Shown here piece after piece: positions 15,429 through 16,982 of a DNA stretch of 64,000 nucleotides. Numbering within the stretch: the stretch's first letter is position 1; each line of letters begins with the position of its first letter. The notes beneath the pieces are model-generated. The model ran no database searches and had not been told where the DNA came from. It saw nothing but the letters and a program-made list of their open reading frames with translations. The DNA comes from a virus (taxonomy: Duplodnaviria > Caudoviricetes), in the IMG/VR virus record IMGVR_UViG_3300021255_002694. One strand, given 5' to 3'. Made by a program: the position numbers and the translations under genes.

Positions 15429-16982
15429 ATGGCAAGAAAATTGGAGATCGGGGATCAAATCAGAAAAAAGAGATCAGTAACAGAGGCTAATAAGGGTTAT
15501 AGTTCTGCTGTATATCAGGCACTTGATGATACATATGTATCTGAGTGGGATGGAAAAGTTGATCCTGATTTCATTGCAGATAATGTTGAACTATTTATCT
15601 GGAATACAAAAGAATACTATGACGAAATCTTTAATACACGTAGACCAGCACATTCAGTTGCATATAGCGGATTGCTTGGACTATTTCAGTTAAATGTTAC
15701 TGATTATGATGTAAATGTTCGTATTACATCTGAAATGGTAAAGCAGTGGCTAAAGAAACATGGTATTGATTATGTCAAACTTCTAAAGCCGATTGTTGAT
15801 AAGATTGAGGAAGAAAGAGCAGAGAGAAAAGCTGAATCAAAGAAAGAATCTGTAAAAAGACCATCTAAAAGAGTTGTAACAGAAGCAAAGAAATTCCGCG
15901 CACTTGATAAGAAAGCAATGGCACTGTATGATGCACAAGATCAAGATGGATTCTATTCTTTTACAGATGATGAACTTGCAAAACTTTGGTCTATGTGTGC
16001 ATACACAGAAGATAATCCTTTTGGTGCGGCTTATGATGATGAAGTCTATAATGCAATCACAGACAGACCTAATTCAGATGAAATCTTTGAGAAAGCAAAG
16101 AGTTATTTGAATCTTCCTAAGAAAGAATCTGTTAGATCAAGACGATCTGTAAAAGAAGAAGTATTCCCATATGAATCAAAGAGGGATTCTTCATTCCCAT
16201 ATATGTACGTTCTTACTCATGGTTTTGGTCCTGGCACACTTCCTCGCGGTGTAAAGGTTGGTAGAGTTGAAGATTATAAAGGATATACTGTTGTATGGCT
16301 TGACAGACCTCTATCAAATGATGAACTGAATCAGTATGATATTCCAGCAGAGACATATCTTAGAAAGTATCTTGGTAATGATCTTGATTATTTCCGTGGA
16401 CTTTCTGGACTTCCAGAGGGTATCCAGAGAAAGAGATCAAAGAGATCAGTAAAAGAGAGTCTTAAAGATTCTGTTGGTCAATATCTTGAAAATGCAGTTG
16501 AGTCCGGTGAAATTGATGAAAAACAGGTTGTTGCTTTCTATGATAAGAACAATAACATTAAGTGGCTTGGAAAGGCTGGATTTGCACCAATCTATCTTGA
16601 TCATGTTGAACTGAAGTCAAAGAGATTTGTTGGTAATGAACTTCGCATCAATGAGAGAGAAGTTACTGAAAGCAAACGTAGAGTTGCAAGAAAGCCAATT
16701 CGTGAATCTGCATGGACTGCTCCAAACGGAAAGAAGTATGGAAAGCAGAAAAGAGATCATGGAACAAGTAGATATATCTTTACTCGTAGAGAGCTGAAAG
16801 ATATGGTGGATTCTGGTATTGCACAGTCAATAAGTAATGCAGAAGAAGCGTGGAAAATGTCTGATGAAGTGATCGGATACTCTTGGAATGAAACAAATGG
16901 TTTCAAGAGTGGAATCCTATTCACAGATAAAGACGGAAATCTTTGGGTTGGAAACACAGGCGTTGCACAGATGTTCCTGTAA
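15429..16982 (+). CDS. five-module putative polyprotein including a DarA C-terminal-like module
   Basis: leader plus four basic linkers ending V/I-x-E; module YVLTHGFGPGTLP...YTVVWLDRPLSNDELNQYDI. Confidence 0.65.
   Translation: MARKLEIGDQIRKKRSVTEANKGYSSAVYQALDDTYVSEWDGKVDPDFIADNVELFIWNTKEYYDEIFNTRRPAHSVAYSGLLGLFQLNVTDYDVNVRITSEMVKQWLKKHGIDYVKLLKPIVDKIEEERAERKAESKKESVKRPSKRVVTEAKKFRALDKKAMALYDAQDQDGFYSFTDDELAKLWSMCAYTEDNPFGAAYDDEVYNAITDRPNSDEIFEKAKSYLNLPKKESVRSRRSVKEEVFPYESKRDSSFPYMYVLTHGFGPGTLPRGVKVGRVEDYKGYTVVWLDRPLSNDELNQYDIPAETYLRKYLGNDLDYFRGLSGLPEGIQRKRSKRSVKESLKDSVGQYLENAVESGEIDEKQVVAFYDKNNNIKWLGKAGFAPIYLDHVELKSKRFVGNELRINEREVTESKRRVARKPIRESAWTAPNGKKYGKQKRDHGTSRYIFTRRELKDMVDSGIAQSISNAEEAWKMSDEVIGYSWNETNGFKSGILFTDKDGNLWVGNTGVAQMFL

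Follow-up and report, generated by a model that had tools for sequence, protein, structure and literature searches.

A 64,000-nucleotide stretch of a tailed-phage genome (IMG/VR record IMGVR_UViG_3300021255_002694; Duplodnaviria, Caudoviricetes), hereafter the window, encodes in its open reading frame (ORF) 15429–16982 a 517-residue protein, P0001, that is built from five modules separated by Arg/Lys-rich linkers, each linker ending in hydrophobic-x-Glu. The joints between linkers and modules are conserved and resemble protease cut sites, one module is present or absent as a cassette, and a prohead protease of the S77 family is encoded among the head genes downstream. We propose, with a probability of about 0.62, that P0001 is a capsid-targeted cargo polyprotein that this protease would cut apart and whose modules would be injected into the host. 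The modules so released would probably be anti-defence proteins.

Modular Build of P0001

The layout of P0001, as read from its translation, is given in Table 1, and all five basic linkers quoted for this gene in an initial annotation, made from the letters and a list of ORFs, are found in the translation of 15429–16982. Modelled whole with AlphaFold2, the protein has a predicted template modelling score (pTM) of 0.30. The predicted local distance difference test value (pLDDT) falls below 50 at residues 1–24, 140–151, 228–253, 327–349 and 382–426, corresponding to the leader and the linkers, while the confident domains lie between these segments; a single fold continuing across the linkers is not predicted. 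The shallow alignment over module 4 leaves it poorly modelled. Folded alone, module 1 reaches a pLDDT of 94.5 and a pTM of 0.87. Four of the five modules are acidic, with isoelectric points of 4.5–5.2, and the linkers carry net charges of +2 to +5. In the whole precursor the basic linkers balance the acidic modules, leaving it close to neutral at net +3.

A homologue search covering 1.84 billion metagenomic cluster representatives matched 360 proteins, each on one stretch of the query: about 13–140, 139–240, 241–325, 338–415 or 418–513. About 59 cluster-representative homologues fall to module 1, some of them stand-alone genes of 116–131 residues; 37 independent homologues fall to module 2, in proteins of up to 1852 residues and in two cases together with ArdA; 68 fall to module 3, and 21 to module 4, including stand-alone genes of about 70 residues. 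Mapping the five modules (M1 to M5) onto 204 retrieved proteins gave 20 architectures. Among them are each module alone, in proteins down to 70–131 residues, as well as M1-M3-M4-M5, M1-M3-M5, M1-M5, M3-M2 and M2-M3, and the modules are also embedded in proteins of up to 1852 residues. The separate homologue sets, the stand-alone genes, the occurrence of modules 2 and 3 in both orders and the AlphaFold domain pattern together give strong support to the conclusion that P0001 is a string of autonomous modules.

Conserved Joints as Candidate Protease Sites

The boundary in front of module 1 was examined by anchoring on the conserved start of the module in relatives at most 50% identical to one another. 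Two of the 40 anchor matches were spurious. In the 38 real copies, P1, the residue preceding the module, is Glu without exception, and P3 is Ile, Val, Leu, Met, Phe or Tyr in 35. This Glu joint stands behind an N-terminal leader of 5–16 residues in 21 cases (MKLRINE, MIIKE and MVKKLRINE are examples) and behind an internal basic linker in 17. Because the same Glu joint occurs in both settings, leader and linker are interchangeable at this boundary.

A similar pattern of constraint extends along the whole protein in 42 closer homologues. The P1 Glu of all five joints, Glu19 and Glu243 included, is 100% conserved in them, P3 stays within Val, Ile, Leu, Phe and Met, and leader positions 3–16 vary while Glu19 is invariant. 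Few parts of the protein vary as much as the linker bodies, whose entropies are about 0.34–0.8 versus 0.1–0.26 for modules 1, 3, 4 and 5; the value for module 2, 0.44, comes from only about 5 sequences.

The joint residue also changes together with the leader. In front of module 5, which starts Ser-Ala-Trp, P1 is Glu in 8/8 proteins with Glu-ending leaders and Ala or Gly in nine other proteins, six of which start with a leader of the MKRYIKS type. A rougher tally over all retrieved proteins found mainly Glu-type linkers in 39/42 Glu-leader proteins. This covariation of leader and joint P1 residues suggests that both elements are read by one lineage-specific factor.

Other joint types are seen in further lineages (P0085, P0095, P0099, P0101, P0160 and P0202; P0143, P0157, P0169 and P0186), where the same DarA_C-like and other modules are connected by a basic run ending [IV]-K-[AC]-S or by an acidic Cys motif, D-x-x-C-x-x-[IV]-x-A-S; the N-terminal leaders of these lineages (MKKKFTIKAS, MKRYIKS) match their joints. 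One locus with such an alternative grammar was recovered (L021, in G001), and it encodes a single small module, not a polyprotein. The ClpP gene of that lineage adjoins PhoH- and ThyX-like genes outside any head module and is uninformative on the lineage's protease. Internal translation starts at the joints of P0001 were also considered and rejected: the 8 codons that follow each joint include no ATG, GTG or TTG, which makes internal initiation unlikely.

Linker Grammar and Leaders across the Window

Written strictly, the linker grammar consists of E[SG], 4–14 non-acidic residues with a Lys/Arg share of at least 40%, and then [ILVMT]-x-E-[SAEGN]. It matches P0001 four times (residue-shuffle mean 0.011; 0/3000 shuffles reach 4), the block upstream of the terminase gene (1–17749) seven times (0.06 expected) and the other 37 ORFs of the window not once (0.14 expected), and the corresponding P values are generous because the pattern was written after the data had been seen. 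The initial annotation had noted this grammar in ORFs that it placed at 8973, 9860, 10672 and 3388. It is present in all four, with 8973, 10672 and 3388 being internal start codons of ORFs 8964–9776, 10663–11235 and 3379–4020.

A short leader ending in a protease-type site is common to otherwise unrelated proteins of the block, and the leader of P0001 is a variant of it that ends in V-T-E. The strict leader form, M-x(0-3)-h-x-h-x-E, with h for a hydrophobic residue, is found in 9/24 ORFs of the block versus 4/37 elsewhere (Fisher P 0.02), and a looser form fits several further ORFs of the block.

Two related observations concern linkers of other kinds or places. ORF 8964–9776 has a second linker type at 9189–9242, in which EGCHG is followed by a Lys/Arg run, and this type recurs in unrelated polyproteins of relatives (P0053, P0154, P0134 and L003 ORF 3568–4185). 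In the head/neck region, a 419-residue protein without a family (28055–29314) has three sites in which a basic run is joined to hydrophobic-x-Glu (KKSVKES near residue 35, RKVRES and KFISEN), and by its sequence it may be another processed head protein.

The Prohead Protease and Its Scaffold

The proposed processing enzyme forms part of the product of ORF 22707–24533, which matches Pfam PF03420 (Peptidase_S77) over residues 28–168 with 43.6 bits (cut-off 27, E 3e-11) and PHROG 207 (head maturation protease) with E 1.5e-40. Relatives L003 and L005 also match Peptidase_S77. T4 gp21, the founding member of this protease family, cuts after Glu in L/I-x-E (PMC9026906), and cutting after hydrophobic-x-Glu is the specificity that we predict for the enzyme of the window. 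Consistent with this prediction, the scaffold half of the same ORF has 11 copies of [LIVM]-x-E-S where 1.64 are expected (about 7-fold; 0/2000 shuffles reach 11), an excess confined to the scaffold fusion among the proteins of the window and found again in L003 (12 vs 2.2 expected) and Bacillus phage SP-15 (13 vs 2.6 expected).

At the very end of the protease domain stands the hydrophobic-x-Glu-Ser sequence KVVES, kept as KVMES in L003. This arrangement suggests that the protease releases itself from its scaffold by self-cleavage. In three aligned capsid N-termini, a conserved maturation site was neither evident nor excluded.

That the prohead protease releases the modules had been proposed from the outset. 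Our analysis gives this proposal indirect support through the S77 assignment, the hydrophobic-x-Glu shared by linker ends and N-terminal leaders, the invariant P1 Glu amid drifting linker bodies and the enrichment of the motif in the scaffold; the cuts themselves are predicted from these features.

Joints as Recombination Points

The DNA that encodes the linkers of P0001 is repetitive, and module 2 lies between two exact 14-nucleotide direct repeats. In contigs of runs X2, X5 and X16, each from a different study, 15839 is followed directly by 16119, so that 279 nucleotides are absent and 14 letters are shared at the joint. The commonest form in relatives has 424 residues, exactly 93 fewer, and is without module 2. 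Module 4 is deleted exactly at the linkers in P0039–P0044.

Exchange also reaches beyond P0001. Modules of other genes of the block are fused to P0001 modules in relatives, namely the C-terminal part of 3379, the N-terminal parts of 8964 and 10663, both halves of 11254 and parts of 2361 and 6396. The N-terminal module of ORF 8964–9776 is joined in this way to module 1, that of ORF 10663–11235 recurs as the C-terminal module of P0112, and the module behind the MKLMIKE linker of ORF 3379–4020 is N-terminal in P0065, P0056 and P0116 and C-terminal in other polyproteins. The same leaders, linkers and S77 protease recur in L003, a 207-kb contig whose terminase is 63% identical, and there the counterpart of window gene 11254 forms an internal module preceded by a basic linker. 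That the linkers are module-shuffling junctions, as the initial annotation had suggested, is strongly supported by the separate homologue sets, the two module orders, the AlphaFold pattern and the 279-nucleotide cassette in three assemblies.

A joint at the level of genes may lie immediately downstream. Just after P0001 (16991–17044), a 13-bp hairpin rich in GC overlaps the promoter's −35 box. Contigs of relatives depart from the window directly past the stop codon (16983) and return to it only at 17015–17047, and for this reason the promoter cassette looks like a gene-level recombination joint resembling the promoter/stem-loop (PeSL) cassettes of T4-like phages.

Table 1. Coordinates of P0001 elements and related features in the window. 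Residue numbers refer to the ORF named or, in the first ten rows, to P0001; a slash follows the P1 Glu.
Feature	Position	Strand	Details
Leader and first basic run	15429–15485	+	residues 1–19; ends V-T-E; contains RKKRSVTE/A (12–20); pLDDT <50 at 1–24
Module 1	15486–15833	+	residues 20–135; all-alpha domain without assigned function; own homologue set
Linker 2	15834–15884	+	residues 136–152; ESKKESVKRPSKRVVTE/A (136–153); net +3; ends V-T-E; pLDDT <50 at 140–151
Module 2	15885–16124	+	residues 153–232; helical; cassette missing from most close relatives
Linker 3	16125–16157	+	residues 233–243; ESVRSRRSVKE/E (233–244); ends V-K-E; pLDDT <50 at 228–253
Module 3	16158–16415	+	residues 244–329; alpha/beta; distant DarA_C-like domain
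Linker 4	16416–16457	+	residues 330–343; EGIQRKRSKRSVKE/S (330–344); net +4; starts L-P-E/G, ends V-K-E/S; pLDDT <50 at 327–349
Module 4	16458–16670	+	residues 344–414; ends V-T-E; missing in some relatives
Linker 5	16671–16706	+	residues 415–426; ESKRRVARKPIRE/S (414–427); net +5; ends I-R-E
Module 5	16707–16979	+	residues 427–517; alpha/beta; 24 homologues
14-nucleotide direct repeat, copy 1	15840–15853	+	AAGAAAGAATCTGT; encodes KKESV; in linker 2
14-nucleotide direct repeat, copy 2	16119–16132	+	exact copy, 279 nucleotides from copy 1; in linker 3
Linker grammar in ORF 8964–9776	9420–9464	+	residues 153–167
Linker grammar in ORF 9860–10657	10319–10360	+	residues 154–167
Linker grammar in ORF 10663–11235	10900–10932	+	residues 80–90
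Internal leader-like linker (…MKLMIKE) in ORF 3379–4020	3679–3720	+	residues 101–114
Consensus host-type promoter, TTGACA-17-TG-n-TATACT	11879–11907	+	heads operon 11918–16982; 11/12 positions, extended −10
Prohead protease (S77, T4 gp21-type) fused to coiled-coil scaffold	22707–24533	+	608 residues; proposed processing enzyme

Genome Context and Expression

The window is part of a large, low-GC (33–38%) tailed-phage genome. Near-identical DNA is present in metagenomes from sheep and cattle guts, whereas RNA runs contained hardly any of the sequence words sampled. A host among the Firmicutes is probable, since the major capsid protein is 40–42% identical to its counterparts in Listeria phage LIS04 and in Bacillus phages HSE3 and SP-15. 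From 17968 onwards the head genes follow in the order large terminase, portal, protease–scaffold fusion and T4 gp23-type major capsid protein. The gene for P0001 lies directly upstream of this series and shares its strand, all genes under discussion being on the + strand. The large terminase gene (17968–20400) has an intein at residues 595–666 (Pfam Intein_splicing, 42.5 bits vs cut-off 35.8), which accounts for its 810 residues against 488 in SP-15.

The 17.7-kb block upstream of the terminase gene (1–17749) holds about 24 genes, the majority of no recognised family. Set apart from these are four SAM-lyase/DUF3293 paralogues and a pair of SprT-like zinc proteases (ORFs 5479–6153 and 7247–8053); the pair exceeds the Pfam cut-off of 25.6 with 34.6 and 46.8 bits. 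Strong acidity is seen in many proteins of this cargo block, with net charges of −22 to −41 (ORFs 6, 650, 2361, 3379, 6396, 8050 and 14941), and would fit inhibitors of the DNA-mimic type.

Among 50,697 phage records, neither a search for near-identical DNA nor tblastn with P0001 gave a match, and a search for related loci in viral and genome collections found no relative of P0001 and likewise none with P0085 as the query. We considered whether the gene might be an artefact of assembly or gene calling and rejected this, as its frame is open in the window and the gene recurs in contigs of many independent runs.

Near-identical copies of the promoter that heads the P0001 operon lie at 17016–17044, before the gene that follows P0001, and upstream of 54799 (about 54720–54752), near replication genes. 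The sequence TATACTATA, tried as a late-promoter box, was rejected in this role, being the −10 region of these three host-type promoters. Gene 11918 has its ATG only about 10 nucleotides past the −10 box and no ribosome-binding site; given that short distance, its mRNA would be leaderless or nearly so.

Possible Functions of the Modules

Module 3 scores 17.5 bits (E 0.006) against DarA_C (PF18789) and its homologues 21.8–24.8 bits, all covering model positions 3–67 and all below the cut-off of 27. A Foldseek search against BFVD returned two viral proteins annotated as DarA_C with probabilities of 0.85–0.90 and weak E values of 0.13–0.14. Pfam and fold searches recognised no family or fold in modules 1, 2, 4 and 5; the whole-protein model had no PDB match at E ≤0.001, the fold of module 1 alone had none above Z 4.9, and a protein atlas search gave no usable match. 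Fusion partners of the modules in relatives comprise ArdA, SAM-lyase-like, RelE-like, LPD11 and LPD26 domains, together with a crassvirus cargo domain that scores just below its cut-off. An anti-defence role of the modules is what we infer from this context, as modules 1, 2, 4 and 5 are without a family and module 3 is below threshold.

Discussion

Our data on the build of P0001, its joints, its module cassette and the protease encoded downstream lead us to the following model. The precursor would enter the core of the assembling prohead through its N-terminal leader, perhaps assisted by the basic linkers, which could bind the acidic scaffold. Once active, the S77 protease would cut after the Glu of each hydrophobic-x-Glu site, removing the leader and the basic linkers and freeing five modules of about 8–13 kDa, most of them acidic. 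These would stay in the capsid until the next infection and then exit together with the DNA; their most likely task would be to counteract host defence. On the evolutionary side, linker-coding DNA would supply the microhomology by which whole modules are inserted, deleted or swapped in frame.

Several points weigh against this model. Cleavage, packaging and ejection are steps that we infer from sequence. The linker grammar and the leader classes were both defined post hoc, and independent support comes from the comparisons with relatives. The leader of P0001 is atypical (MARKLE...), its first Glu having Lys at P3, and certain linker starts (K-K-E/S, K-A-E/S) break the hydrophobic-P3 rule; excision of the basic peptide at both of its ends is uncertain for the latter reason. 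The sole recognisable likeness among the modules is the sub-threshold one of module 3 to DarA_C, and in the regions examined the cargo block was not found in the cultured relatives SP-15 and LIS04. Because the promoter of the P0001 operon is near-identical to that of the replication region, operon 11918–16982 may be expressed early, and an overlap with head assembly is presumed.

Could P0001 function without being cut? Phage multidomain proteins of 2–15 domains are delivered whole, such as N4 vRNAP and ArdC (PMC5512222), and P0001 might be an uncut protein of this polyvalent type, with the basic stretches as flexible, perhaps DNA-binding tethers and hydrophobic-x-Glu as a domain cap or folding element. 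Disordered linkers between confident domains would suit any beads-on-a-string protein, and the near-neutral charge of the whole precursor is compatible with this explanation as well. A passive tether, however, needs no invariant Glu with a hydrophobic P3 in front of a module across 38/38 divergent copies, would not interchange with an N-terminal leader of the same form, and would not shift from Glu to Ala or Gly together with the leader type. The same motif is moreover strongly enriched in the scaffold, a classical protease substrate, and we regard an uncut protein as unlikely. The idea that P0001 is an early cytoplasmic polyprotein, made from the host-type promoter at 11879 and acting or being processed in the infected cell without ever being packaged, seems to us improbable. 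It draws on the sharing of that promoter with the gene after P0001 and the region before 54799. T4 internal-protein genes are themselves transcribed early as well as late. A leader common to many unrelated proteins of the block, with its likeness to a protease site, is hard to explain without head targeting, and the position of the block directly upstream of the terminase, portal, protease and capsid genes on one strand speaks for such targeting too.

If the linkers are cut, the enzyme might still be another one, either a SprT-like protease of ORF 5479–6153 or 7247–8053 or a host enzyme acting at the basic runs, before packaging or after injection; zincin peptidases have been proposed by Iyer et al. 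to release the domains of polyvalent proteins (PMC5512222). Both SprT-like ORFs pass their Pfam cut-off, and the linkers are rich in dibasic sites. Yet it is the Glu-ending tripeptide that is conserved while the basic residues drift, P0001 has no peptidase domain of its own, and we know of no SprT cleavage rule of the Glu-ending kind. Glu at P1 is a known rule of S77 proteases (PMC9026906), and the motif marks the scaffolds of this clade, so that we think a different protease quite unlikely and favour cutting by the S77 prohead protease.

The closest working parallel to P0001 is found in the internal proteins of T4, and the closest parallel in build in the polyvalent proteins. IPI, IPII and IPIII of T4 have a capsid targeting sequence and are processed by gp21, and all three inhibit GmrSD-type restriction enzymes (PMC9026906, PMC3012670, PMC12373910). 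Like these proteins and Alt, P0001 combines a short leader ending in hydrophobic-x-Glu with an S77 protease, small products and a variable cargo-gene cluster; the T4 products are injected with the DNA, as we propose here. Unlike the T4 system, in which one leader, one cut and one product go together, P0001 has five cut-site-like joints and five modules, its joints are Arg/Lys-rich, its leader differs in sequence and the protease is fused to the scaffold. P0001 belongs to no PHROG or Pfam family, has no tblastn match in the phage records searched and shows no homology to the T4 internal proteins or their leader; the likeness would be one of mechanism and not of descent.

Polyvalent proteins, for which co-delivery with the DNA and processing into units have been proposed (Iyer, Burroughs, Anand, de Souza and Aravind 2017; PMC5512222), are likewise mosaic chains of small conflict-related domains encoded next to packaging genes, and they share domains with the system described here, DarA_C-like in P0001 and ArdA, LPD11 and LPD26 in its fused relatives. 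The model of Iyer et al. ascribes release to an embedded zincin (MPTase) or other peptidase and does not discuss linkers, a word absent from that paper (PMC5512222), whereas the joints of P0001 carry the predicted site of a separate head-maturation protease. P0001 and its modules match no peptidase family even at E up to 10, and the SprT-like proteins are separate genes. DarA/Hdf of phage P1, whose C-terminal domain module 3 resembles below the Pfam cut-off, is head-internal, trimmed by the prohead protease, ejected with the DNA and protective against type I restriction (PMC12810830); unlike P0001 as we envisage it, DarA sheds one N-terminal piece only and is a large capsid-bound protein.

Multiple cuts are also known from the head proteins of phiKZ, 201phi2-1 and SPN3US. 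In many of these proteins a gp21-related protease cuts behind the Glu of a three-residue motif, and some have several such sites (PMC9026906, PMC10052503). In SPN3US, 13/14 mapped sites remove N-terminal propeptides (PMC10052503). The multiple cuts of these phages break up long propeptides that are discarded, whereas the pieces between the sites of P0001 are without exception conserved modules that fold independently. PeSL cassettes, described by Comeau, Arbiol and Krisch as gene-shuffling joints in T4-like phages (PMC4122927), share with the P0001 linkers the use of short conserved sequences as in-register recombination joints, and a hairpin with a promoter lies just after P0001. The joints of P0001 differ in lying inside the reading frame and swapping protein modules, not whole genes. 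In a literature search that covered a minority of subscription journals, we found no paper on linkers with prohead-protease sites that join shufflable cargo modules.

What would such an arrangement mean for tailed phages? On balance we lean, with modest assurance, to the broader view that these phages have a polyprotein strategy of their own, in which the joints would be at once head-protease sites and in-frame recombination cassettes that track the protease specificity of the lineage, Glu here and Ala or Gly elsewhere. One head-loading event would then deliver several injected proteins, and the arsenal would be combinatorial and fast-evolving. Should the cuts be real, a phage would inject more proteins than its gene count suggests, one ORF of 517 residues giving five products, and a leader or linker ending in the protease site of the lineage would flag candidate injected effectors in uncultured phages. 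Most such modules have no known family, and the recognisable few (ArdA, DarA_C-like, SAM-lyase-like) are tied to anti-restriction. Real cuts would also make P0001 a case of domain shuffling in which one short sequence serves both as protease site and as recombination joint.

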